Below are positions 723 through 19,411 of a stretch of DNA of 22,938 bases, in pieces. A program made the translations under genes and the position numbers. Within the stretch, counting starts at the first letter, position 1. Each line of letters starts with the position of its first letter. Below the pieces are notes generated by a model. The model was not told the DNA's origin. It saw nothing but the letters and a program-made list of their open reading frames with translations, and did not search any database. Origin of the DNA: Vulcanimicrobiaceae bacterium. Its GTDB lineage: Bacteria; Vulcanimicrobiota; Vulcanimicrobiia; Vulcanimicrobiales; Vulcanimicrobiaceae. Location of the stretch: contig JBHEMM010000023.1 of the NCBI GenBank assembly GCA_046262595.1, forward strand, positions 1 through 22,938, written 5' to 3'.

Positions 723-872
723 CAGTTAGCACCGGTGCCGTAGGTAAACGACGCGGCGCGGATAACGTACTACGGTGAAGCGCCGCGGCCGATGCGTAAC
801 TCGCAACATGGATAGAGCTCCGGCTCGGCAGCGACGCCTCATCACCTGACAACTGTGGAGGAAGTCAAAAAG

Positions 873-3800
873 ATGGGTTTATTCCGACGGCATGCAGCCG
901 GGCTGCGCGCCGTATTTAGCGTCCTTCTTGCCGTAACGTTCGTTATCGGCGGGCAAGGCGCGGCATTCGCCGGCACGACCGGTATCATCAACGGCGTCGT
1001 CACCGATCAACAGACGAAAGCGCCGATTTCCGGCGTACGTGTAACGGCCGCCGCTCCCTCGGGCTCATACACCGCGACGACGGACCAGCATGGATTCTAC
1101 TCCATGACGGGCGTGTATCCCGATTCGTATACCGTCTCTTTCCAGGCCGGCAGTTACGCGCCGGTCGTGCAGCCGGGTGTTGCGGTCTTCGCGGACCTCA
1201 CCGCCACGGCCAGCGCCTCGATGACCAAAGAATTGAGAACGATTGCGAAAGTCACCTCGCGCAGCGCGGGGGGCGCCTTTCAGCCCAACCAAACCGTGGA
1301 CACGTACACGGTTACGGCGGCCCAAGCGAATCAAATTCTCGGTAACAACATCAACCTGAGTGAATCGCAGCTCATCGCATCGCTGCCGGGCGCCTCGTTC
1401 GACAGCAGCGGTTACCCCGTCATTCGCGGCGGCCGTGAAAACGAAGAGAGCTTCCAGTTCGAAGGCATCCCGTACACGGACGCGTTCACCAACCAGTTCG
1501 TGAACACGCTTTCGCTCCCGGGCCTCGGCTTGCAGTCCGCGCAGCTTACGCCGGGCGTTTCCAACGCCACGTTTGCTTCGCAAGGCACCGGCGCACTGAA
1601 CCTCATCGTCAAGCGCGGCACGTATCCGGGCTTTGCCACGGGCCAGCTCGCCGTCGGCGAGCCCTCGTTCCGGCACTCGGCGAACTTTGAATGGGGTTGG
1701 GCCACGCCCGACGGGCACTGGTCGAACTACATGTCGTTTGCCGGCCGCAATCTGGCGCCGCAATACCGTTACAACTCGCTCGATATCGGGCGCTTCGGTT
1801 CGACGCAGATGGAAAGCGACCGCGAGTTCATTAATAACCTGGTCTACCGCTTCGGCAAGAACAACGGGCAATCACTGCAAGTTTTTGCCGACGTCGCCGA
1901 CCACCATTTCTACGAAGGCTACGGCGGCTACGGCGCCACGTGCTTCGCGTCGTGCGATCCGGCTTTCTTGCGCAATGCTTCCGCGTTTACAGGGATCGAT
2001 TTCCCGAACTGCTACGGCACCAGCAACACTGCCGGCTCCATCGCGGGGAACGGCGCGACGAACTGCGCCGACATTCTCTCGATAGTTCCGCTCGATCCGT
2101 ATCAGAGGAGCGCTTCCGAAACGCTTGCGCAAGCGAACCGCAACTACGAAACGTATTACCAGCCCAACGCCTCGTACAAGTTGCAGTATACCAACAACCT
2201 AAACTCCTCGACGTATCTCTCCGTCATGGCGTATAAGACCAACGCCGTGGTCATCTTCGACTTCCCCGAGGGAAGCGGAACCAACCCGTTCGGTTTCAAT
2301 TCGCATTTGCAGCAGGGTGGACAAACGACCGGCGGCAAGATCGACTTGACCAAGCAATTGAGTGAGAAGCACGTGCTCAAGCTCGGCGGCAATTTCGCTT
2401 GGCTGCATCCCGTCTACGATCAGCCGTGGACGACCTTCGGCTTCTGGAACGGCGTCTTTGGTAATGGAGAAGTGTACGACTTTCTCTCGCCGGCTCAAGG
2501 CGGCACGGGCTACCTTGCAGCGAACGGCATTCCCGCCGGAACGCGTATGCCGCCTTCGTATGAAAGCGCGAACTCGAACCGTCAAGATTTCGGCGTATAC
2601 CTGAACGATACGTGGACGCCGAACGCGCGCTTGAACGTCGATATCGGCGTACGCATGGACGGAACAAACCAAAAGTTCAACTTTCCCGTCGGCATGAACG
2701 CGAACTGCGAGTTTTATTACCTGCCGACTTCGATAACGGCTCCGGCCGACCCGAGCGGCATTCGCACGCCCGGCGACTGCGGAACCGCAACGTTCGACGT
2801 CGGCAATAACAAACTGCGTCCGCGCGTGGTGCAGCCCGTCATGGCCGTCAGCTGGAAGCTCGGCAACAATGACGCGGTTCGTGCGGCATACGGCCGTTCC
2901 GTCGAGTTTCCGACGCTGGGGGCCGAAGACTTGTCGGCAGCGCGCAATTACTACAGCCGGTACAATAACGTTCCGTCATATTCCGCGTACTCGAATGCTC
3001 CGGCGGCGAATTGCGGTATCTTCTTGGATACGCTGTGCTCGAGCTACGCCGACGAGTTGTATTGGGACAACCAAAACGATATTCTCGGCGTCCCGATCCA
3101 GCCGATTAAACCGGAAGTGTTTACCAACTACGACGTTTCGTATTCCCATCAATTCACGAACGGGTTTTTAAACGGCGTACAGTTCAAAATCACGCCATGG
3201 CTGCGCAATGCGCAAGATGCGTTTGCCGCGGCTCAAACGCCCAAAGTGGTCAACGGCAAGATCGTCACCGATCCGGCGACCGGCGCGATTCTCTACAATC
3301 CGCCCACGCAAAGTAACCTGGGTTACAGCCGCGCCGACGGTATCGAACTTTCAATTACGCGGCAAGTTGCCTACGGGCTTTCCGGCCAGTTCTCGGCAAC
3401 GTATCAGAACGAAGTGTCCAACGTCGTGCCGCTCTCGGGAAGCGAGGATTTCTATCCGTCGGTTCCTGCAGCGTCGCTTGCGCTGGGCAACAAGTACCGC
3501 GTCGGCTTCCTCTCACCGTTCCAGACGACACTCGCGCTGGATTACCACACGCATAACGGGTGGCGCTTCAGCCCGCAGTTCTTCTATAACATCGGATATC
3601 CGTACGGCTCGGGACTCATGGGCGCCAGCTTCGTTGACGGCGTCGCATACAACATCCCGAATACAAACTACTCGGCGGGCCTTATCGGCGCTCCGGCCGG
3701 CGCGCCGCAGTACATCGATCCGATGAACCCCGGAACGGTCTTCGATCCCAACATCGTCGCTTCGCGCGGCACGCCGGAAAAAGCGTCGCCCGGCGGCGAA

Positions 3801-4112
3801 TTGACGCATCCGAGCACGAACATCAACTTCACGACCGAGTACGAGCTGCCGAACCATCAAATGACGTTCGGCGCAACGATCCTTGACGTGACCAATGAGC
3901 TGTTCAGCGGCCCCTCCTTGAACGGACGCTACCAGCCCGTTGCAACCGGTATCTCCGGTCCCCTTAGCGGTTCGAGCGCGAACACAAAGCTGTACGGTCC
4001 GGCCTATGGGCTCGTGAACTATAGTTCACTGCGCCAGCCGTTCGCTCCGTACATTAACACGCCTAACGGCGCGGGCCGCACTTTCTACTTCTACGTCACC
4101 ACGAAGATCTAA
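873..4112 (+). CDS. TonB-dependent-receptor-like outer-membrane beta-barrel protein with N-terminal carboxypeptidase-regulatory-like domain
   Basis: GGAGG 857-861 before ATG 873 (GTG 855 is an alternative). Signal peptide ending AAFA; GIINGVVTD..APISGVRVT..TDQHGFY..YTVSF domain; plug-like LPGASF..VIRGG..FEGIP; barrel strands (GVYLNDTWT, LNVDIGVRMD); C-terminal beta-signal-like GRTFYFYVTTKI. Confidence 0.85.
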   Translation: MGLFRRHAAGLRAVFSVLLAVTFVIGGQGAAFAGTTGIINGVVTDQQTKAPISGVRVTAAAPSGSYTATTDQHGFYSMTGVYPDSYTVSFQAGSYAPVVQPGVAVFADLTATASASMTKELRTIAKVTSRSAGGAFQPNQTVDTYTVTAAQANQILGNNINLSESQLIASLPGASFDSSGYPVIRGGRENEESFQFEGIPYTDAFTNQFVNTLSLPGLGLQSAQLTPGVSNATFASQGTGALNLIVKRGTYPGFATGQLAVGEPSFRHSANFEWGWATPDGHWSNYMSFAGRNLAPQYRYNSLDIGRFGSTQMESDREFINNLVYRFGKNNGQSLQVFADVADHHFYEGYGGYGATCFASCDPAFLRNASAFTGIDFPNCYGTSNTAGSIAGNGATNCADILSIVPLDPYQRSASETLAQANRNYETYYQPNASYKLQYTNNLNSSTYLSVMAYKTNAVVIFDFPEGSGTNPFGFNSHLQQGGQTTGGKIDLTKQLSEKHVLKLGGNFAWLHPVYDQPWTTFGFWNGVFGNGEVYDFLSPAQGGTGYLAANGIPAGTRMPPSYESANSNRQDFGVYLNDTWTPNARLNVDIGVRMDGTNQKFNFPVGMNANCEFYYLPTSITAPADPSGIRTPGDCGTATFDVGNNKLRPRVVQPVMAVSWKLGNNDAVRAAYGRSVEFPTLGAEDLSAARNYYSRYNNVPSYSAYSNAPAANCGIFLDTLCSSYADELYWDNQNDILGVPIQPIKPEVFTNYDVSYSHQFTNGFLNGVQFKITPWLRNAQDAFAAAQTPKVVNGKIVTDPATGAILYNPPTQSNLGYSRADGIELSITRQVAYGLSGQFSATYQNEVSNVVPLSGSEDFYPSVPAASLALGNKYRVGFLSPFQTTLALDYHTHNGWRFSPQFFYNIGYPYGSGLMGASFVDGVAYNIPNTNYSAGLIGAPAGAPQYIDPMNPGTVFDPNIVASRGTPEKASPGGELTHPSTNINFTTEYELPNHQMTFGATILDVTNELFSGPSLNGRYQPVATGISGPLSGSSANTKLYGPAYGLVNYSSLRQPFAPYINTPNGAGRTFYFYVTTKI

Positions 4113-4121
4113 GGAGAGCCG

Positions 4122-5201
4122 GTGAAACGATATCTTATACTCCTAATGCTCGCCGGCGCGGCCGTTGCGGGTTGCTCGACGAATGGTTCGGAGATCAACC
4201 CGTCGCTGGTGCAGGCGAACGTGAACAACGATAAACTGGAGTTCGCCGTCGGAACGGCGAACTTCCAAGGCACAACGTATCTGAACACCGTCGTCTCGTT
4301 GCGCCAAGCCAGCGGCGCGAGCGCGGTGCTCTTAGATACGCCGACCATCACGGGGCCGGCCGGTTTCACCGTCCCGGCAGTCGGATCGGCCGGAACTGAC
4401 GCAGGCACGAATCGTATCAGCGGCACGCCGCAGTCGGTACCGACCAATCCGTACACGCCGCCCCCCGTGACGACGTTCAACCAGTCAGGCGGTGCGTTTT
4501 CGTACGGTTTTGCGCCGTTCAACTCCGGCACGACGGGCGCGGCGTTGTATCCGGGCAACCCGCCGCTCTACTCGCAGCCGTTCTACATCGCCGCGGCGTC
4601 GAAGCTGTCGTTCTACGGCGGCCCGCCGGCATTTCCGTTCTTCAACGACGGAACGTATCCGAGCGGTTTCCTAGGATATTCGCAAGGGTTCACGATGTTT
4701 GGCGCAACGCCGGTCGGCGGCGCGTACACGTTGAGCGTGCTGGTGCCTGCAGCGAACGCAGCTCCCGTAACGTTAACGGCGTCGGCGAATCTTAACCCCG
4801 CTATCGTGGTGGGCGTTCCGGTTATCACCGGCGTCGTCACGAACGGTGCCGGCGGACTTACTGGTACGATAACGCCGGGAACGGGCGCTACGGAAAGCCT
4901 GGTATACATCCAGGACGTCACGGCGGGACTGCGTTACACGGTGGGACCGATTGCAGGTACGGCGCCCGCAGCGTTCACGCTTCCAAACACGCTTGGTCCG
5001 TGCAGTACGCGAGGCTGCGGTGCAACGGATACCACGCCGAGCATTGCCGCAGGCGACACGTACAGGGTCTACGCGGCCTCGTTCGACTATCCGGCGTACG
5101 AATCGGCGCCGCCGATCAGTACCTCGGCTACGCCTACGATTATCGGCGGAAACGGTCAAGCCGACATCGGCGTCTCGACGACGACGAGCGGAACCTACTA
5201 A
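4122..5201 (+). CDS. Lipoprotein of unknown function, partner of upstream TBDT-like gene
   Basis: AAGGAG 4111-4116 overlaps the upstream TAA; GTG start; MKRYLILLMLAGAAVAG-C lipobox; Gly/Thr/Pro/Ala-rich, probably beta-rich mature part. Confidence 0.85.
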   Translation: MKRYLILLMLAGAAVAGCSTNGSEINPSLVQANVNNDKLEFAVGTANFQGTTYLNTVVSLRQASGASAVLLDTPTITGPAGFTVPAVGSAGTDAGTNRISGTPQSVPTNPYTPPPVTTFNQSGGAFSYGFAPFNSGTTGAALYPGNPPLYSQPFYIAAASKLSFYGGPPAFPFFNDGTYPSGFLGYSQGFTMFGATPVGGAYTLSVLVPAANAAPVTLTASANLNPAIVVGVPVITGVVTNGAGGLTGTITPGTGATESLVYIQDVTAGLRYTVGPIAGTAPAAFTLPNTLGPCSTRGCGATDTTPSIAAGDTYRVYAASFDYPAYESAPPISTSATPTIIGGNGQADIGVSTTTSGTY

Positions 5202-8952: not shown

Positions 8953-9489
8953 ATGCCGTATGTCCGGGAAATCATTCGTGACGGTCACCCGACCTTGCGA
9001 AAGATTGCCAAAAAAGTAAATCCGAAGGAGATTGCCGATCCGCTTTTTCAGCAATTGATCGACGACATGTTCGAGACGATGTACAAGGCGCCCGGCGTGG
9101 GCCTCGCCGCGCCGCAGGTCAACGTTTCCAAGCGTCTCTTCGTCATGGACACGGGCGAAGACGACGAGCATCCCGAAGGCGGCGAGTACACCGTCATCAA
9201 TCCGAAGATCGAACTAGCGGAAGAAGAAGTCGAGCTCGTCGAGGGGTGCCTTTCGGTGCCGGGTTACGTCGGCGACATCGTGCGTTTCGATCGCGTTGCG
9301 GTGAGCGGATTGGATCGCAGCGGAAACCGAATCCGTTTGGAAGGCCGAGGATTATTCGCGCAAGCGCTCCAGCACGAAATCGATCATCTCAACGGTGTGC
9401 TCTACATCGACAAGGCGAAAAATCTCCGGCTTCCGCAAAATAAAGAAGAGGAAGAAGCGGCTGAAACGGCCGCCGCTGAAGCGTATTAG
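8953..9489 (+). CDS. def: Peptide deformylase
   Basis: All three motifs present: GVGLAAPQ, EGCLS, QHEIDHLNG. Confidence 0.97.
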   Translation: MPYVREIIRDGHPTLRKIAKKVNPKEIADPLFQQLIDDMFETMYKAPGVGLAAPQVNVSKRLFVMDTGEDDEHPEGGEYTVINPKIELAEEEVELVEGCLSVPGYVGDIVRFDRVAVSGLDRSGNRIRLEGRGLFAQALQHEIDHLNGVLYIDKAKNLRLPQNKEEEEAAETAAAEAY

Positions 9490-10369
9490 AACGCTGTTTT
9501 TCGGAACGAGCGCGTTCGCCGTTCCAAGCCTGCGCGTAATGGCCAGGCGTACCGATCTCGCAGGTGCCGTGACGCAGCCCGACAGCCGTTCGGGCCGCGG
9601 GCGGCAGATGCACGCGTCGCCGGTAAAAAGCGCCGCTGTTGCGCTCGGCGTTCCGGTTTACCAGCCGGCTTCGCTGCGCGCCTTCGCGAATGAACTGCAG
9701 GGAACATACGATCTCTTTGCGCTGGCATCGTACGGAAAGATTTTGCCGCAAGCACTGCTGGACGTCCCCGCATTTGGCGCGCTGAACGTGCATCCGAGTC
9801 TGCTTCCGCGGTACCGCGGCGCAACGCCGATTCAGAGCGCGCTGCTCGATGACGCGCGCGAAACCGGCGTGACGATCATGCTTATGGATGCGGGCCTCGA
9901 CACCGGCGACATCGTTCTGCAAGAAGCAACGCCCGTCGAGCCGCAGGAGCGTTACGGAGAATTGCACGATCGCCTGGCACAACTGGGCTCGCAGCTGCTC
10001 GAGCGCGCTCTGGGTGCCGCGCAGGACGGCGCACTTCCCCGCCATCCGCAGCAAGGCGAAGGCAGCCTCACGCATCCGTTCGGAAAAAGCGATCTCATCT
10101 TAGATTGGAATTGGCCCGTGCGCCGCGTGGTCAGCGCAGTGCGGGCGTTTTCCCCCACGCCCGCGGCGCGCGCGCAGCTGCGCGGAGAAGCGGTCAAACT
10201 GCTGCGCGCGCAACCGTTTGCCGGCGAACGCTTCGATGCGCCGCCCGGATCGATCGTTTCCGCGCACGGTGAGGCGGCCACCGTGCAGTGCGGCGACGGC
10301 GCTGTGGACGTGCTGGAGCTGGTGCCGGCGAACCGCCGCGCGATGTCCGGCGCGGCGTTCCTGCGATGA
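9461..10369 (+). CDS. fmt: Methionyl-tRNA formyltransferase (start codon uncertain, probably non-canonical CTG 9461/9476 or ATT 9485)
   Basis: FFGTSAFA, VTQPD..GRG, SPVK, YGKILP, NVHPSLLPRYRGATPIQ, TGVTIMLMDAGLDTGDI; lies between def and rsmB. Confidence 0.93.
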   Translation: MKRPPLKRIRTLFFGTSAFAVPSLRVMARRTDLAGAVTQPDSRSGRGRQMHASPVKSAAVALGVPVYQPASLRAFANELQGTYDLFALASYGKILPQALLDVPAFGALNVHPSLLPRYRGATPIQSALLDDARETGVTIMLMDAGLDTGDIVLQEATPVEPQERYGELHDRLAQLGSQLLERALGAAQDGALPRHPQQGEGSLTHPFGKSDLILDWNWPVRRVVSAVRAFSPTPAARAQLRGEAVKLLRAQPFAGERFDAPPGSIVSAHGEAATVQCGDGAVDVLELVPANRRAMSGAAFLR

Positions 10370-11700
10370 GCGCGCGCGACGTTGCGCTGCAAGTTGCGCG
10401 CGATGTGTTTCCCGCAGGTGAGCGGTCGGCGCAGGAGCGCGGCGCGCAAGAAGCGCTGGACTACCGTTTGAATAAAGCGCCGCTGGATGCGCGCGATCGC
10501 GCGTTCGCAACGATGCTCGCGTTCGGTTCGATCAAGATGCGGCGTACGCTGGATTGGTATCTCAAGCCGTATGTCGGCGATCGCGACAAGACACTGCCGC
10601 CCGTCATCGCCGAGATTCTGCGTTTGGCCGTCTTCGAGTTGCGGTTTGCTTCCAGCGGCGTGCACGCGGTCGTGAGCGAATGGGTCAGCCTTGCGAAAAA
10701 ATACGGTCATCGCGGGACCGCCGGATTAGTCAACGCGGTGCTCCGGTCGTTTCTGCGCGACGATCCGAAAACGCCGCAACCGGCCGACTTCGAGAACGAA
10801 GACGATTATCTGGGAACCGCGTTCTCGTATCCCACCTGGCTCGTGCGGCAATGGCGCGAGGTGTTCGGCGGCGAGCGGCTGGAGACGATGCTCCAAGCAG
10901 GCAATGCGCCCGCGCAAAGCGCGGTCGTATTCAACCGCACGAAGGCAAGTGCGGACAATGTCATCGCGTGGTTTACCGCTCGCGGCGCGCAAGCGGAGCC
11001 GTCGGGTTTGGCCGAGGACTGCGTGCTGGTCTCCGATGGCGCGCTGGCGCGCGCCGGCGAAGCGCAGAGTGAGGGGGCGTGGTGGGTCCAAAGCGAGTCT
11101 TCCGCGCTCGTAGTGGACGTTTTGAATCCGCAAGGCGGCGAGAAAATTGCCGATGCGTGCAGCGGGCGCGGCAGCAAGGCGCTGCAGATCGCCGCGCGCA
11201 TGCACGGCGAAGGCACGCTGATCGGCATCGAACGCGATGCGCACAAGGTTGCGGCGCTGCAGCGCCGCGCGCACCACGCCGGATTGGCGTTGGCAACGGT
11301 GCTAGGCGACGCGACGCTCGCCGTTCCGGCAGAGCGGTTCGACCGCGTGCTGATCGACGCCCCATGTTCCGGAACCGGCGTCGTGGGCCGTCACCCGGAA
11401 GCGCGCTGGCGCAAACGTCCGGGCGACGGTGAACGCTTGGCGCACACGCAGCGCGCGCTGCTCGAGGCTTTTTCCTCGCGCATTCTTCCCGGCGGCGTGT
11501 TGGTGTATGCCGTTTGCTCGGCGGACCCGCGCGAAACTGTGGAAGTGATGGAAACGTTCTCGCGCGGTAGCGCGCTGCAGCGCGGGCTCATTCCCGGCGC
11601 GCTGGGCGAGTTTCAAACCGCTGCGGGCGACGTGCTCGTTCCGCCGGGCATCGCCGGCCGCGACGGTTTCTTTATCGCGCGGCTCGAAGCGCAGGCATGA
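10366..11700 (+). CDS. rsmB: 16S rRNA m5C967 methyltransferase RsmB/Sun (NusB-like N-domain + SAM methyltransferase)
   Basis: ATGA overlap with fmt; LRLAVFEL..AVVSEWVSLAK..GLVNAVLR, SYPTWLV, VQSESS, FDRVLIDAPCSGTG, RHPEARW, LVYAVCS, DGFFIARL. Confidence 0.9.
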   Translation: MSARDVALQVARDVFPAGERSAQERGAQEALDYRLNKAPLDARDRAFATMLAFGSIKMRRTLDWYLKPYVGDRDKTLPPVIAEILRLAVFELRFASSGVHAVVSEWVSLAKKYGHRGTAGLVNAVLRSFLRDDPKTPQPADFENEDDYLGTAFSYPTWLVRQWREVFGGERLETMLQAGNAPAQSAVVFNRTKASADNVIAWFTARGAQAEPSGLAEDCVLVSDGALARAGEAQSEGAWWVQSESSALVVDVLNPQGGEKIADACSGRGSKALQIAARMHGEGTLIGIERDAHKVAALQRRAHHAGLALATVLGDATLAVPAERFDRVLIDAPCSGTGVVGRHPEARWRKRPGDGERLAHTQRALLEAFSSRILPGGVLVYAVCSADPRETVEVMETFSRGSALQRGLIPGALGEFQTAAGDVLVPPGIAGRDGFFIARLEAQA

Positions 11701-12377
11701 GCTGGTTCGCGCGGATCGAGGAAGGCTGCGCCGCTTTTATCGAGCGTGCGTTCGCGAGTATGTTTCCGAGCGACGTCGAGCCCGCGCAGATCGCGCGAAA
11801 ATTGGTCGCCACGATGGAAGCGCGCAGTGCGAACAGCGAGGGCACGGTTAGCGCACCGGCGGCCTACTGCGTTTTTGTCAACCCGCTCGATTTCGCGCGC
11901 CTTTCCCAGCATCAGACGTATCTTGAAGGCGAGTGGAGTGCATTGCTTGCCGATGTCGCGCAGCGCGTGGGCATCCGTTTGGACGGCACGCCGGGCATCA
12001 CGCTCAAAGAACATCCCCGCGTGCCCGCAGGCGCAATCGAAGTGCATGCGGTCCTTGCCGGTGAAGCGGACGAAGCGCCTGCGCAGTTCCGGCTGCTGCC
12101 GCTCGGCGACGCCGATGCGCCGGGGCATGCGGTAAACGGCGCGACGCGCGTGGGCCGCAGCGCACAATGCGATATCGTCCTCTCCGACCCGAGCGTCTCG
12201 CGCAATCACGCTCTGCTGGACGTTCAGGGCAGCACGCTGAGCGTGCATGACGCAGGTTCGACCAATGGCACGTTCGTGAACGGCGAACGGATCGATACAC
12301 ACACGCTCGCGCCCGGCGACACGATCGCATTCGGAAAAAGCTTATGGACCTGCGCCTCGGTTCGCTCGCGATCCTAG
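11697..12377 (+). CDS. fhaA: FhaA-type protein: DUF3662 N-domain + FHA domain
   Basis: ERAFASMFPSDVEPAQIARKL..APAAYCVFVNPLDF resembles DUF3662; FHA motifs VGRS, VSRNHA, DAGSTNGTFVNG, LAPGDTIAFG. Confidence 0.88.
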   Translation: MSWFARIEEGCAAFIERAFASMFPSDVEPAQIARKLVATMEARSANSEGTVSAPAAYCVFVNPLDFARLSQHQTYLEGEWSALLADVAQRVGIRLDGTPGITLKEHPRVPAGAIEVHAVLAGEADEAPAQFRLLPLGDADAPGHAVNGATRVGRSAQCDIVLSDPSVSRNHALLDVQGSTLSVHDAGSTNGTFVNGERIDTHTLAPGDTIAFGKSLWTCASVRSRS

Positions 12378-12775
12378 GCGCGCTGGCGCTGTTCGGCGCC
12401 GTCGCTTCGAAGGTGCGCACCGAGCCGCCCGAGCTGCCTGCGCCCGAGCGCGCAATGGCTGTCGATCTGACGGTTAACGAGACGGCGCGGCGCGGCGGGA
12501 AGCGCGAGGTGCGCCTGCGGTTGGAACCGGGATCACCGCAGATCATCGGGCGCTCGAGCGACGCCGCCGTCGGGGTGCTGGACCCGGAAGTGAGCCGCCG
12601 GCACGCTTCGCTGCGCGCGGTCGGCGGGGTCGTCTACCTGGCCGACTTGGGCAGCGTGAACGGCACATTTTTGAGCGGAAAGCGGGCCGGGACGGACGGA
12701 ATCGAAGTTCTTGCTGGAGACGTTATCGATGTGGGAACAACTCGAATGACCGTGAGCGCGATCGAACCGGCATGA
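12344..12775 (+). CDS. fhaB: FhaB/FipA-type membrane-anchored FHA protein
   Basis: N-terminal hydrophobic segment LGSLAILGALALFGAVA; FHA motifs IIGRS, VSRRHA, DLGSVNGTF, GDVIDVG; follows fhaA with a 34-nt overlap. Confidence 0.82.
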   Translation: MDLRLGSLAILGALALFGAVASKVRTEPPELPAPERAMAVDLTVNETARRGGKREVRLRLEPGSPQIIGRSSDAAVGVLDPEVSRRHASLRAVGGVVYLADLGSVNGTFLSGKRAGTDGIEVLAGDVIDVGTTRMTVSAIEPA

Positions 12776-13476
12776 ACGTCGCCATCAGCGGAGACCGCAG
12801 CAGCGCTCTCTCGGAAGAACTCGCGCCCGGCACGCACGTCGTCGCATTGGCGCGCGGTTTCGGTCATATCGAGGGAATTGCGGTCGCGCCTGCAGTGCTC
12901 GGACGGCTGCGCGTCGAGCTGGCGCGCCGGCTGCGCGGCGAGCGCCTTGCGCGCGCGAAACGCCGTATCAACGGTATCATGCCGCTGCTCACCGCCGCGT
13001 TCGGACGCGTCAACGCCGACGTCCACGCGCGCAGCGCCTCAAACGATGATCACGTAACGGCGGGCTGCTCACTCACCGGCGCGCTGCTCGTCGGCAACTG
13101 CGTGTATCTGGCGCACACCGGTTCGACGGCCGCGTATTTGTGCCGCGATGGGTGCGTCGTTTCTCTCACGCGCAACGATGCGATCGAAACGCCGGCGGGC
13201 GCGGTGCTCACCCGCTCGATCGGCTGCGCGCCCTCGCTGCAGCTCGCCGTATCGAGTTTTTCGCTCAACGAAGGAGATGCGCTCGTGCTCGCGCGCCGGC
13301 GTTACACGGCCGCCGAGGAACACATGCGTCAATGGGAGCGCGAAGCGTCGCTCGTCGTGCGCTACGCAGCCGGACCGCCCGGCGTGCCGGGCATACGGTA
13401 CGGTGGACATCTCAAGCGGATCACGTTCGGAACGGTTGCCACGGTGCTGTTTTACACGCTGCTTTGCCTGAGATAA
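12772..13476 (+). CDS. PP2C/PPM-fold (PstP-like) protein lacking catalytic aspartates, with C-terminal hydrophobic anchor
   Basis: ATGA overlap with fhaB; colinear PP2C-like segments ALARGFG, GCSLTGAL, YLAHTGSTAAYL, SLTRND, VLTRSIG, LNEGDALVL; occupies the pstP position between fhaB and rodA. Confidence 0.78.
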   Translation: MNVAISGDRSSALSEELAPGTHVVALARGFGHIEGIAVAPAVLGRLRVELARRLRGERLARAKRRINGIMPLLTAAFGRVNADVHARSASNDDHVTAGCSLTGALLVGNCVYLAHTGSTAAYLCRDGCVVSLTRNDAIETPAGAVLTRSIGCAPSLQLAVSSFSLNEGDALVLARRRYTAAEEHMRQWEREASLVVRYAAGPPGVPGIRYGGHLKRITFGTVATVLFYTLLCLR

Positions 13477-14717
13477 AGCTGGCGCTCTCGCGCGTTTGGC
13501 CGACCGCGTTTGCCTTAGCAATCGCGGCTTTTTTCTTTTCGTTCGCACCGCCGAAAGCGATCGGGCCGCCGTGGCTACTTGCGTTGCTGGCCGTGCTAAC
13601 GCTTGCCTGGGTGCTGCTGCAGCCTAAAGCCGCCCAGCGTGATGACATGCTTCCGGCGATCGCCGTCGTCTTGGCGTCCGTGGGATTGCTTCTTGTCGCC
13701 CGTCTCTCGCCCGAGCTCGCGCATAAACAGCTCTGGTGGCTGCTCATCTCCGTCGGACTCGCGGTCGCGTTCGGCGTGCCGCTTACGATGTTCCGGCGGA
13801 TGGCGTCGTACAAATACGTGTGGGTGCTGCTGTGCTTGGTGCTCTTTGGGATGCTTGTGGTATTCGGTCAAGAAGTGAACGGCGCAAAGTTGTGGATCCG
13901 TTTGGGCCCCGTTCAGTACGAGCCCGTCGAGCTGATCAAGTTGTTCATCGTCTTTTTTCTCGCTGCGTACCTTGCTGAAACGGCCGACGTGATCGCGCGC
14001 GCGCGCCCGTGGTCCGTGCGCGCAAATTTGAAATATTTGGGACCGTTGTTTCTGGGCTGGGGCGTTTCAATGGGCATTCTGATGCTGCAGCGCGACATCG
14101 GCATGGCGGTTCTGCTGCTTGCGACGTTTTGCATCATGCTCTACGGCGCGACCAAGCGCTGGGATCTGCTCGTCGGCGGCTGCGTTATCTTCGGCGGCGC
14201 GGCACTTTGGGCCGTCCGCCATTATCACTACGTCGGAACGCGCATCGCAGTCTGGCGCAATCCGTTCGCGGATCCGCTCGGCGCCGGGTATCAAGCGGCG
14301 CAGAGCTACTACTCGCTCGCCGCGGGCGGCGTGCTCGGAACCGGCTACCGCCTCGGGCATCCGGGCTACACGCCCGACGCCGCGACGGATTACATCTACT
14401 CCGCACTCAGCGAGGAGTTCGGCCTTATCGGCGCTCTCATCGTACTGGGTTTGCTGCTGGTGCTCGTGCGCCGGGTGCTGAGCGTGGCGACGTACCAGCC
14501 GGACTTGTACACGCGCTTATTGGCGGTCGGATTGAGCGCAACATTGGGCTTCCAAGTGTTCATCATCGTCGGCGGCGTCATCGGACTGTTCCCGCTTACG
14601 GGCATCACACTGCCGTTCATCTCGTACGGCGGCAGCTCGCTTGTCGCAAATTTTCTGCTCGTGGCCCTTGCGTGGTCCATGAGCGCGCGTCCACGCGCGG
14701 CGGCTGCGCGCGGCTGA
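13464..14717 (+). CDS. rodA: SEDS-family peptidoglycan glycosyltransferase (RodA/FtsW/SpoVE)
   Basis: Multiple TM helices; NGAKLWI..EPVELIK, QRDIG, GYQAAQS, PDAATDYIYSALSEEFG, PLTGITLPFISYGGSS. Likely TTG start 13464 overlapping the upstream stop; rodA rather than ftsW is assigned from synteny. Confidence 0.9.
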   Translation: MPEIKLALSRVWPTAFALAIAAFFFSFAPPKAIGPPWLLALLAVLTLAWVLLQPKAAQRDDMLPAIAVVLASVGLLLVARLSPELAHKQLWWLLISVGLAVAFGVPLTMFRRMASYKYVWVLLCLVLFGMLVVFGQEVNGAKLWIRLGPVQYEPVELIKLFIVFFLAAYLAETADVIARARPWSVRANLKYLGPLFLGWGVSMGILMLQRDIGMAVLLLATFCIMLYGATKRWDLLVGGCVIFGGAALWAVRHYHYVGTRIAVWRNPFADPLGAGYQAAQSYYSLAAGGVLGTGYRLGHPGYTPDAATDYIYSALSEEFGLIGALIVLGLLLVLVRRVLSVATYQPDLYTRLLAVGLSATLGFQVFIIVGGVIGLFPLTGITLPFISYGGSSLVANFLLVALAWSMSARPRAAAARG

Positions 14718-16366: not shown

Positions 16367-16969
16367 CTAAGTGACCTGCGCAAGGCCGGCGTCCGGCCGT
16401 TCGACGCACTGCGTGAAGTTGCACGCGAAAAGCGCCTCCACGTACGCGTACATCGCGGGATCGAGGCGCTTGAGGCGCATTCGCGTGGCGCGCGGCCAAA
16501 ATGAGTTGGGATCGTTCACCTCGACGTAGGCGCGCACGGATTCCGCGAAATACTCGTCGGGCGCCGTCGCGGCGTACGGCGTGACGTAGGCGGCCGCTTG
16601 CGCGAACAAGGCGCGCATGCTCTCTGAGGCGGTGGAATGGTAAACGCCGCCGCCGAGCACGCAGTCGAGTGCGTGCCCGAATTCGTGCGCAACGGTCATG
16701 GGCGAACGGGAGCGCAGATACACCATGCGTTCCTCCACGACGAAGAGCCCGGCGGGCGGTGCGGGCCACGCATCGACGTCGATCGCCAGGCGCCGCAACG
16801 CGGCCGATCGCTCCGCATAGCGCTCGCCTTTGTGCAGCGGCACGATGCGCACTCCGCCGCCTTGCGCAAAGCGCAGCGCCGGCTCGCCGAAGCGCTCCAA
16901 CGTATGTAAGACGCCGGCGAGTTCACCGGCGTCGCGTGTCTCCAGCAGCAGCTCTGCACTCGTACTCAT
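16367..16969 (-). CDS. Zinc metallopeptidase-like protein, anthrax-lethal-factor/Pro-Pro endopeptidase/MtfA-like catalytic domain
   Basis: HEFGHALD, then PYAATAPDEYFAESVRAY and LKRLDPAMYAYV; start ATG 16969 (the upstream part of the 384-aa ORF crosses a terminator and another gene); no signal peptide. Confidence 0.8.
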   Translation of the reverse strand: MSTSAELLLETRDAGELAGVLHTLERFGEPALRFAQGGGVRIVPLHKGERYAERSAALRRLAIDVDAWPAPPAGLFVVEERMVYLRSRSPMTVAHEFGHALDCVLGGGVYHSTASESMRALFAQAAAYVTPYAATAPDEYFAESVRAYVEVNDPNSFWPRATRMRLKRLDPAMYAYVEALFACNFTQCVERPDAGLAQVT

Positions 16970-17067: not shown

Positions 17068-18573
17068 CTAGGAGCAGCCGTTGCTTGTCAGTAGGAAATA
17101 GGCGTCGGCGGGGTTCACCGTGAGCGGATTTGAAACGGCACGCCCCTCGATATCCGTATACGTGCGACCTGAAGGCAGCGCCAACGAATACGGCGTACCG
17201 TTCGGTGGATTGCCGGTTGCATTGACGATAGAGAGCCCGCCTTGGAACTTGCGTTCGTAGACGTTGGTTGACGGCTGCGTGTAAGCGCCGCAAGCCGCGC
17301 CGTATGTCGTGCTGTATTCGTTGCGGTACGAGTAGTTCGATCCGCCGTGCGGAGAGATGTAGACGTCTTCGCCGCCCTCGTTGCCGATCGCATAGGTTGC
17401 AAGCGCCCAGTCGACTTGCTGCGGCGTTAGCGTGGACGGATCGTTGGAGCAGCCGCTGCCCGTGCAGTAGTAGTCCGTGACGAGCACCGCTATATGGTGC
17501 TGCTGCGTATACTCGACCCATTCCAGCGTGTTTGCGAACGCATTGGCGGTTAACAGCGATCCGTAAGCCGTATAGCCGTTTTCATCCACCATACCGTCCG
17601 TGTACGAAAGAATTTGCTCTTCGCTCGGATTCGTCGGATGGTTGTACAGCGGATGATTGATCAGCAGTTTGAGCCCGGCGCCGTGCACGGCGGAACTGGT
17701 TTGACCGACCCACGCGACCATGTCTTGAGCAAATTGCGGATCGTTACGGTTGTACGTGGTGCCTGGCGTTCCATAACGGCGCTGGAACGTTCCCGAAGCG
17801 TCGTAGGTGCCGCAGCCGTATTCGCCTGACTTAACGCTTTGACCGAAGTTCGGATTGCCGCCGTCCAAATAATTGATCAGGTCGGTATTATCGGCGGCTA
17901 ACGCGTTGTAGCTATTCGCCTGCAGATACGGTATGAGCAGCTGCATTTGGTATTGCTGCACGGCGGGCTCGTAGAAGGCCAGCGGAACGTCAGTAAAATA
18001 GCTTCCCGACCAAGCCAAGTCGTGCGTCGGATTTCCGCTGCTGTCGCATGCGTACAAAATCCAGTCCGGGTGGTTCGTCTGCCACCAGGAAAGGTCATGC
18101 GTTGAGACGAGATTGTCGTCTTCCGGCGGCACCATATACCGCGAGAGGATGATTCTGCTGTTCGCGGCGCGCCAGGTCTGCGGCGAGAATGCGCCCCACA
18201 CGCTGTCGTACCGCGGCGCCTCACTTTGAATTTGCGAGCTCGTAAGCGCCGGTTCTCCGCCGTAGTTGTCGAGGATCTGTGTCAAGCCGAAACGTCCGCT
18301 CGTGTCCGGCTGCATCGTGATGCTTTGCGTTGCGGGCGTTGAGCCCGGCGTCGGAGTGACCGTCGGCGTCGGCGTCGCGGTTGCATGCGAAGTGGGCGTA
18401 GGTGTGGCCGTTGCATGCCCCGTTGGCGTGGGTGTCGGGCTTGCGCCGCCGCCATTGCCGCCGCCCGGTGCAGGCGGCGTACCGCCGCCGCCGCCTCCGC
18501 CGCACGCGCTAAGCGCCAGCGCGAGAACGATGCTTCCAAGAAAAAGAACGCGTGTTGAAGATGCAGGCCGCAC
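17068..18573 (-). CDS. Lipoprotein with Gly/Pro-Thr linker and putative glycoside hydrolase domain (GHL15-like)
   Basis: GGAGGG before GTG 18573; lipobox LALSA-C; poly-Gly and PT linker; WQTNHPDWILY, YNALAADN, GMVDENG, C-terminal VYERKFQGGLSIVN resembling the 'hypothetical glycosyl hydrolase family 15' pattern. Confidence 0.7.
   Translation of the reverse strand: MRPASSTRVLFLGSIVLALALSACGGGGGGGTPPAPGGGNGGGASPTPTPTGHATATPTPTSHATATPTPTVTPTPGSTPATQSITMQPDTSGRFGLTQILDNYGGEPALTSSQIQSEAPRYDSVWGAFSPQTWRAANSRIILSRYMVPPEDDNLVSTHDLSWWQTNHPDWILYACDSSGNPTHDLAWSGSYFTDVPLAFYEPAVQQYQMQLLIPYLQANSYNALAADNTDLINYLDGGNPNFGQSVKSGEYGCGTYDASGTFQRRYGTPGTTYNRNDPQFAQDMVAWVGQTSSAVHGAGLKLLINHPLYNHPTNPSEEQILSYTDGMVDENGYTAYGSLLTANAFANTLEWVEYTQQHHIAVLVTDYYCTGSGCSNDPSTLTPQQVDWALATYAIGNEGGEDVYISPHGGSNYSYRNEYSTTYGAACGAYTQPSTNVYERKFQGGLSIVNATGNPPNGTPYSLALPSGRTYTDIEGRAVSNPLTVNPADAYFLLTSNGCS
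18345..18502 (-). repeat. Low-complexity coding repeats (poly-Gly; PT repeats with duplicated HATATPTPT)
   Basis: Encodes GGGGGGGTPPAPGGGNGGGASPTPTPTGHATATPTPTSHATATPTPTVTPTPG; coordinates approximate. Confidence 0.75.
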
Positions 18574-18650
18574 AATACCCTCCGTCATGGCGAGCATACC
18601 GTTACGGCGGCCGTTTGCAGAACGGGCTGTTGGGCACGAAAAAGGGGCCT

Positions 18651-19052
18651 TTAGTCTTGTTTAGCTCTGCAAGACGCGCAGCGGCCGTGAAAACTCACCC
18701 GCGCATGTGCTATTTCCCCGCCTCGGGCGCGTTCCAGACCGGCGAGAACGGGCGGCGGCAGCGCGTAATCCACGTCATCGATGGCTCCGCATTGCTCGCA
18801 TTGGAAATGCGCGTGCGCGCCGGCTGCGCGTTCGTACAACGCGCCGCCAGCACCGGGCAGCGCTATCTCGGAGATCAGACCAAGCTCGCGCAGACGGCCC
18901 AACGCACGGTACACGGTTGTTTCGCCGATTCCGGGCCGGCGCGCTTTCGCGGCGGCGAGCACTTGAGCCGCGGTCAGATGTTTGCCCGCGCCTTGTGCGC
19001 AGACAACCTCATAGACCATCGCGTAGTTTTTTGCCAGCCGCCGATCTTCCAC
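18651..19052 (-). CDS. Fur-family transcriptional regulator
   Basis: HLTAAQV, IGETTVYRALGRLRELGLI winged helix, HAHFQCEQCG and C-terminal CASC zinc motifs. Subfamily (Fur/Zur/PerR/Nur) not resolved. Confidence 0.92.
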   Translation of the reverse strand: MEDRRLAKNYAMVYEVVCAQGAGKHLTAAQVLAAAKARRPGIGETTVYRALGRLRELGLISEIALPGAGGALYERAAGAHAHFQCEQCGAIDDVDYALPPPVLAGLERARGGEIAHARVSFHGRCASCRAKQD

Positions 19053-19072: not shown

Positions 19073-19411
19073 TTACGCGATGGGCGGAGGAACCGCGTGG
19101 CCGGGCCGCTCACCGGCTTGCGAATGCGATCCGCTCCACGTCTGACGCGGCGCATCCTCGCGCAGCGTTTCCGGGGCCTGCATTGACGAGCGCGCACCCG
19201 AACGGCGGTACAGGAAGTACGCCAGCAGTCCGGCGCCGGCGGCCGCGGGCAGCGCGAACCAGATCCACGAGGGCAAGCCGGCCGGCTGTTCCTGACCTTG
19301 CAGATAAAGGCGCTCGCGCGCGCAGTCGGCATGCTCGGGGTCGCCCTCGACGAAAACATTTCGGTGGTGCTCGCATTTGTTGTTCAGGCAGGTGTAATAA
19401 ACGACTTCCAT
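19073..19411 (-). CDS. Small single-pass membrane protein with N-terminal Cys/His cluster
   Basis: ATG start; CLNNKCEHH...HADC; TM WIWFALPAAAGAGLLAYFLY followed by RR; fills the gap between fur and the padR promoter. Confidence 0.7.
   Translation of the reverse strand: MEVVYYTCLNNKCEHHRNVFVEGDPEHADCARERLYLQGQEQPAGLPSWIWFALPAAAGAGLLAYFLYRRSGARSSMQAPETLREDAPRQTWSGSHSQAGERPGHAVPPPIA

Follow-up and report, generated by a model that had tools for sequence, protein, structure and literature searches.

PstP-type phosphatases are regarded as the needed counterweight of PASTA kinases. In a stretch of 22,938 nucleotides from a Vulcanimicrobiaceae bacterium (GenBank assembly GCA_046262595.1, contig JBHEMM010000023.1; hereafter, the window), the position of the PstP gene between fhaB and rodA is taken by an ORF in which the catalytic aspartates cannot be recognized. 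This locus raises the questions of whether the ORF is a true PstP orthologue, whether it is decaying or kept for another function, and what that function might be. The frames overlap from rsmB through rodA (Table 1), and the gene order around the slot is conserved among relatives; def-fmt-rsmB also precedes prpC-prkC in Firmicutes. Downstream, rodA is followed by a cytochrome c gene, and pbpA-pknB is located on contig C9 rather than directly behind it. A promoter scan returned nothing above chance.

As the preliminary description had stated, the ORF is uninterrupted (234 codons, no internal stop) and overlaps both neighbors, by 4 nt with fhaB (ATGA) and by 13 nt with rodA when its probable start, the TTG at 13464, is used. 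The homology of the ORF to PstP/Stp1 is weak but clear, and beyond chance. PstP (1txo) matched the sequence with an E value of 8e-5, and a profile of the orthologues matched PstP with an E value of 3e-22. The NCBIfam Stp1 profile NF033484 gave an E value of 1e-8 and 35 bits, which is below its cut-off of 230, a cut-off that was reached in none of 201 genomes, intact copies included; the PF00481 score (19.6) was also below the cut-off (20.3). The AlphaFold model (pLDDT 87.7) had bacterial PPM phosphatases as its best fold matches, namely tPphA (Z 20.5, rmsd 2.6 Å over 182 residues, with model residues 2-198 lying on chain residues 1-240) and PstP 1txo (Z 18.3, rmsd 2.9, 181 aligned residues), and no match to a non-PP2C fold was found in the fold and structure searches. 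The proposed PP2C scaffold was thus borne out, as was the assignment to the PstP slot: the gene lies between fhaB and rodA, occurs as a single copy, aligns with PstP motif by motif through the orthologue profile, and is linked to intact relatives by a continuous series. The protein is the PstP orthologue of this lineage, turned into a pseudophosphatase, that is, a PPM fold without the catalytic aspartates that is kept by selection.

Table 1. Features of the pstP slot and its surroundings, with positions in the window.
Feature	Position	Strand	Basis
def-fmt-rsmB, conserved upstream context	8953..11700	+	domain match, gene-order comparison
fhaA; FhaA_N and FHA domain, pThr-binding residues intact	11697..12377	+	domain match, residue check
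fhaB; N-terminal hydrophobic segment and FHA domain, pThr-binding residues intact	12344..12775	+	domain match, residue check
pstP-slot gene; PP2C/PPM-fold pseudophosphatase, 234 aa (P0001)	12772..13476	+	homology searches, AlphaFold, fold comparison
PPM domain of reduced size, aa 1-200; lacks the motif-1 loop, the flap and part of the last two helices through deletion	12772..13371	+	model, fold comparison, length comparison
G7-D8-R9, clade-specific short loop in place of the RxxNED loop	12790..12798	+	alignment, conservation counts
R28-G-F-G; D38 slot (Arg here, variable in clade), then invariant GFG	12853..12864	+	alignment counts
Loop aa 87-97, R-x-A-S-[HN]-x-D-[YH]-V-T-A, before GTT-equivalent strand; D93 invariant; R87, A89, Y94, T96 gained in clade	13030..13062	+	conservation counts
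H115-T-G-S-T-A-A-Y; Ser in the D118 slot, Ala for the GDSR Arg, T119 almost invariant in clade	13114..13137	+	alignment counts
R176-R177, D191-G192 slot; [HRK]-R in most clade members	13297..13302	+	alignment counts
Uncharged helix at the C terminus, aa 217-233; homologue of the transmembrane helix in intact orthologues, not followed by an outside domain	13420..13470	+	alignment, model, hydropathy
rodA (SEDS family); probable TTG start within Leu-Cys codons of the pseudophosphatase	13464..14717	+	domain match, start-codon analysis

All of the altered motifs that had been quoted for this protein are present (ALARGFGH, AHTGSTAAY, LTRNDA, and LVLARRRY), and RxxNED and the final DN are absent. In the alignment of the orthologue profile to PstP, in which we take D25, D118, and D191 to be residue numbers of the metal-ligand slots, D38 corresponds to R28, D118 to S118, and D191-G192 to R176-R177, and the segments that hold R20/D25 and D229 are deleted, so that every metal ligand is lost. 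The substitutions at three slots are real, but, as a correction to that description, most of the losses are deletions. Only 27 residues precede the D38 slot, compared with a median of 35 in the intact orthologues (eight fewer), the substrate-binding flap has 12 residues instead of a median of 27-28, and the last helices have 21 instead of 47. One change that had been counted, GMG to GFG, is present but is a lineage trait, because the intact orthologues also carry GFG. In PMC3052367, the source of the numbers R20, D38, and D229, Arg20 is the phosphate-binding residue of PstP, and a single D38G or D229G change removes > 90% of its activity. Because one such change is already sufficient, the pseudophosphatase very probably cannot dephosphorylate. 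An Arg-rich helical insertion (aa about 43-65, window positions 12898-12966) is absent from PstP and occurs in both active and dead orthologues of the class; its R47, R52, and R55 are nearly invariant, and a membrane or partner contact is possible.

The distribution of the slot gene was examined in related genomes. Of 41 related genomes, 38 had a match, as did 177 of the family's 201 genomes, in nearly all cases a single one; none of the 150 matches listed for these 177 genomes had an internal stop. The 64 related loci came mostly from Vulcanimicrobiota/Eremiobacterota, in agreement with the Atlas cluster; they were found with a motif pattern typical of the dead form, so the sample is non-random. 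The alignment comprised 120 distinct copies after 14 duplicates, four frame-broken copies, and one truncated copy were dropped. No conclusion rests on unpublished genomes alone: G105, G114, and G046 enter the tallies only, G036 is one of ten outgroup copies, and G022 is one of ten deletion checks. Database labels for the dead proteins are "hypothetical" or, wrongly, "PrpC."

In the tree of neighboring proteins, the other orders retain all five aspartates and the outside domain, and the family splits into two branches. In the first, the aspartates are mostly kept and the outside domain is lost. The second contains the dead clade, with 78 aligned copies from at least 31 genus codes (support 0.98); the same clade was recovered, on a long stem, in the tree of the pseudophosphatase itself (support 0.76). 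The eight-residue motif-1 deletion, the loss of D25, D118, and D191, the deletion of Arg20, and the replacement of the GDSR Arg are common to 78/78 copies. D38 is kept in seven of the 78, and an Asp occurs in the poorly aligned D229 column in three. The flap has been shortened to 12 residues, except in the basal subgroup, where it is longer, and the last helices have a median of 28 residues vs 47. A subgroup of six full-length slot proteins within the first branch (L132, L134, and L137-L140, from g33, g43, g48, g64, and g78) is losing its ligands one at a time: D118, D191, and D229 are gone, D38 is His or Glu in three, and dN/dS is 0.079. Their neighbors L127, L133, L135, and L016 show intermediate states. 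With the 78 dead copies in one clade and these six in the other branch, the dead clade goes back to a single ancient loss of catalysis, and the second loss was independent.

In 24 genomes, no match to the slot gene was found, and all ten of those examined showed a clean deletion in which fhaB abuts rodA (L146-L150 and L198-L202, six genus codes). Five of the deletion genomes were placed on the tree, three of them at separate points inside the dead clade, and fhaA, fhaB, and rodA are retained where the gene is deleted. Since it was cleanly deleted at least three times inside the dead clade, the pseudophosphatase gene is, judging from these genomes, non-essential. In a list of the 150 best representative proteins, short dead copies carrying the motif-1 deletion came first and canonical enzymes after them; apart from these, only P0118 and P0120 stood out as partly decayed. 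P0118 and P0120 are near-identical longer PPM proteins with GFG and decayed D118/D191 motifs. In addition, P0041 has two PPM domains in tandem, one of them intact and the other apparently dead, and the bin G066 holds a dead-type copy (L188) and a higher-scoring Stp1-like copy (on C234), which may reflect contamination.

We also analyzed whether the dead gene evolves under constraint. Codon models gave dN/dS values of 0.153 (the genus of the window), 0.104, 0.099, 0.046, and 0.036 in five subsets of the clade, the first nested in the second, and w = 1 was rejected in each (2dL 183-1461). At the same loci, the values for FhaA, FhaB, and RodA were 0.03-0.19; intact sister copies had 0.092 and the outgroup order 0.011. 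With a counting method applied to 80 pairs, which were picked by rodA dS alone and share ancestry, so that they are not independent, the median dN/dS was 0.22 for the slot gene, 0.19 for FhaA, 0.24 for FhaB, and 0.18 for RodA. These rodA-chosen pairs were used because NG86 values from pairs picked by protein identity (median 0.063) are biased low. Within the genus of the window, pairwise values were 0.18-0.40, above those of RodA. The dead protein is therefore as constrained as the FHA proteins and less constrained than the active outgroup enzyme. Neutral decay toward loss of the gene is very improbable and is refuted by the codon tests: repeated clean deletions, a second lineage losing its aspartates, and four frame-broken copies speak for it, but none of the 150 matches listed has a stop, neutrality is rejected, a congener of one broken copy is intact, and two broken loci have broken neighbors, as from assembly errors. 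Repurposing rather than decay, as had been proposed, is supported by these values, by the dead state of the close relatives, and by the PP2C fold.

In the same genome, an intact PASTA kinase is encoded behind pbpA, apart from the fha-rodA operon (G000:C9:19901-23461, five PASTA matches); its activation loop, QQTMAMTRPG, has two Thr that relatives also retain. Three further PASTA matches lie in a separate ORF on C16. The other Hanks kinase of the genome (G000:C3:1142-1882) is soluble and has a helical C-terminal region; it resembles a kinase in many relatives and lies beside genes that we take, from their translations, to be rnhB and a YraN-like gene. All 54 genomes that were picked to represent every group gave a PknB match, and VAxK, HRD, and DFG were intact in all 30 kinases read. 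Co-loss of the slot gene with the kinase was therefore rejected, as the 54 include five deletion genomes. The pThr-binding residues are intact in 76/76 FhaA and in 77-78 of 78 FhaB proteins.

Searches of this genome, which is 90% complete, turned up no further Stp1-type phosphatase, nor, the slot gene aside, did profile searches of the 201 genomes. Of the 69 NF033484 matches, 55 had a position to compare, and these 55 were the pstP-slot gene. Back-up by another PP2C was considered and rejected: almost all of the 17 strong PF13672 matches in the 201 genomes are in sister genera, the one that was read, in G204, belongs to an accessory gene linked to vWA, and the three matches within the clade all failed to fit a canonical PstP profile. 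The 2.4-Mb genome has 17 SpoIIE-type phosphatase matches and four metallophosphoesterase matches, and such enzymes may stand in for PstP in resetting PknB signals.

What, then, is the retained protein for? In our reading, to which we give a probability of roughly 0.55, it is a non-essential, tail-anchored adaptor or docking part in the PknB-FHA-RodA cell-wall pathway. The C-terminal hydrophobic tail that had been described is retained as an uncharged helix, but it is only marginally hydrophobic here (17 uncharged residues, best 19-residue Kyte-Doolittle mean 1.32). A mean of 1.6 is reached in 68 of 77 clade members, and the tail is apparently lost in two of the 77. With moderate confidence, the pseudophosphatase would be held by this tail on the inner face of the membrane. 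In two dead copies (L123 and L124, g47), the tail is basic and amphipathic instead of hydrophobic, and Pro occupies the T96 position.

The conserved surface was recounted in 37 copies from 31 genus codes that had been found without the motif pattern, because motif conservation is circular for the 64 loci fished with the same motif. The residues that the dead clade has fixed and that are seldom seen elsewhere are G7, D8, R9, R65, R79, V80, R87, A89, Y94, T96, A97, T119, A120, and A149. In the unbiased set, D93 is conserved in all 37 copies, T119 in 36, Y94, A89, and D8 in 35 each, R87 in 34, and T96 in 30, with Ser in a further two; the other five, two of them in the genus of the window, have P, D, N, or V. 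Outside the dead clade, Thr occurs at this position in about one of 37. The best-kept surface is the loop beside the old site, R-x-A-S-H-x-D-Y-V-T, with the gained Thr96. From general PPM topology, we assume that the G-D-R loop, GFG, the 87-97 loop, H-x-G-x-T, and the 176-177 pair cluster and face the former active site, and that T96 is exposed.

The loops around the former active site may serve as the docking surface. Presumably unable to remove its own phosphate, the slot protein could have become a standing PknB substrate, and phospho-Thr96 in the H-x-D-Y-V-T loop would then bring FhaA or FhaB close to RodA. In mycobacteria, PknA/PknB efficiently phosphorylate inactive PstP mutants on Thr (PMC3052367). 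The mycobacterial PknB sites of PstP (T137, T141, T174, and T290) are not conserved here in our reading of the profile alignment, and the five replacements of T96 count against this dock. By analogy, we prefer this phosphorylation step, but taken alone it remains tentative, at well under even odds. The broader proposition that the clade converted the one phosphatase opposing PknB into a substrate of the kinase and a dock for FHA proteins, leaving a PASTA-kinase circuit without a cognate eraser, is about as doubtful; if true, the eraser would have become part of the read-out, with reset by SpoIIE-type enzymes or turnover.

The preliminary description had suggested that Arg might replace the metal cations, giving a phospho-reader, an anti-phosphatase, or a scaffold that would link the FHA proteins to RodA. 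In a reader or anti-phosphatase, basic residues of the old metal site would bind pThr on PknB or on the PknB substrates and protect it from other phosphatases, for which the 17 SpoIIE-type matches would provide competitors. At the D191 slot, 74 of 78 copies (H41, R25, K8) and 33 of the 37 unbiased copies have a basic residue, the next residue is Arg in 63/78 and 29/37, and R9 and R148 are conserved. At the D38 slot, Arg occurs in 37/37 of the largest subclade and 4/4 of the genus of the window, two groups that lie apart on the tree. However, the full count there is R43, T8, D7, H5, N5, S4, A3, E2, and K1, with Arg in only 17 of the 37 unbiased copies at a fast site (rate rank 147 of 200), and R176 and R177 rank 101 and 74; the proposed Arg pocket is only half borne out. 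One genus-level clade has HE/RP at the D191 slot and the next residue, and the clade containing Rubrimentiphilum lacks all three Arg. The phosphate-binding Arg20 and the substrate flap are deleted, and the operon already has two intact FHA readers. Replacement of the metals by Arg is weakly supported, and we consider this reading unlikely.

It is somewhat less likely again that the frame is kept mainly to pass ribosomes to rodA, with selection doing no more than removing misfolded membrane products. Of 77 copies, 50 have an NTG codon of the rodA frame 10 nt ahead of the pseudophosphatase stop, including all 50 with Cys or Trp at -3, the Leu before Cys is CTT in 15 of 18 (vs 11.6% in the neighbors), and deletion lineages simply join fhaB to rodA. 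The terminal Cys or Trp is thus a by-product, because the rodA start codon overlaps those codons; a lipidation or sorting signal was rejected, since Cys alternates with Trp and always carries the start codon. However, the overlap accounts for the last codons only. The 200-residue domain has a dN/dS like that of FhaA and newly fixed loop residues, and although a short deletion would be cheaper for coupling and occurred repeatedly, most of the clade keeps the domain.

New chemistry, in which the remodeled pocket binds or converts a small anionic ligand (lipid phosphate or nucleotide) without metal, is also quite improbable. The invariant H115 and D93 and the near-invariant T119, H91, Y94, D136, and R148 remain, and many Arg were gained. 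However, H115, D93, D136, and R148 may be structural, because they are also (nearly) invariant in active orthologues, H91 and Y94 differ in the window protein, and no fold other than PP2C was matched.

The docking reading was compared with known systems. PstP (Rv0018c) belongs to the actinobacterial fhaA-fhaB-pstP-rodA-pbpA-pknA-pknB locus (PMC6554272), and it shares with our protein the fold, the fhaA-fhaB-X-rodA order, and a C-terminal helix, which spans the membrane in PstP and putatively does so here; a PASTA kinase behind pbpA is likewise present in our genome, but on another contig. Unlike PstP, the window protein lacks the metal ligands, Arg20, the flap, and the outside domain, and whereas PstP is essential in mycobacteria (PMC6554272), the slot gene was deleted in several lineages here. 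TAB1 and PHLPP2 also have a PPM fold under selection after an ancient loss of activity, with a proposed membrane scaffold role (PMC12002173), but they are eukaryotic and each keeps one metal site, and PHLPP keeps the flap; the window protein keeps neither a ligand of any site nor the flap. The C-terminal domain of E. coli RssB is likewise a bacterial PP2C-like pseudophosphatase that acts by protein binding (PMC6546054); it differs in being a SpoIIE-like domain fused to a receiver, a proteolysis adaptor that is not a PstP/Stp1 orthologue and has no known Hanks kinase link. The closest analogue of the preferred step is the mycobacterial MviN (MurJ) pseudokinase, a dead membrane signaling enzyme that is phosphorylated by PknB, recruits FhaA, and is dispensable (PMC12599244, PMC6180346); MviN is, however, a kinase fold fused to a flippase, and its phosphorylation and FHA binding have been demonstrated, whereas for the window protein both are a proposal. 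The MurJ of our genome, whose match lies in two frames in this assembly, ends soon after the flippase domain with no pseudokinase extension and therefore offers no MviN-like FhaA dock. DivIVA/Wag31 was not found in this 90% complete genome.

To our knowledge, few bacterial PPM pseudophosphatases have been described. In the literature covered, which excludes most subscription journals, we found neither a published PstP-type pseudophosphatase nor a PstP from this phylum. The clade-wide pseudophosphatase in the PstP slot is real and was not found in print. Thus, a large clade has an intact PknB and two intact pThr readers, and the only Stp1-type phosphatase found in it is dead or deleted. The pattern suggests, as far as sequences can tell, an enzyme turned into a membrane docking part and kept under selection. 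The family forms a natural series, from intact copies with the outside domain through short intact, partly decayed, and remodeled dead copies to deletion, in which a non-catalytic PstP role and the resetting of PknB signals are open to direct tests.

Several other ORFs of the window were recorded. A small Cys-rich membrane ORF (19073-19411, -) has no match; the adjacent Fur-like ORF with CxxC motifs (18651-19052, -) was not called by Pfam at E 0.01. A 200-aa HExxH protein (16370-16969, -) has a weak, below-cut-off ATLF Pfam match (E 3e-5) and resembles a small zinc peptidase, with no signal peptide seen. Two lipoprotein-like ORFs without a Pfam match lie at 17068-18597, with a Pro/Thr linker, and at 4122-5201, the latter after a TonB-dependent-receptor-like protein with a carboxypeptidase-regulatory-like domain (855-4112).
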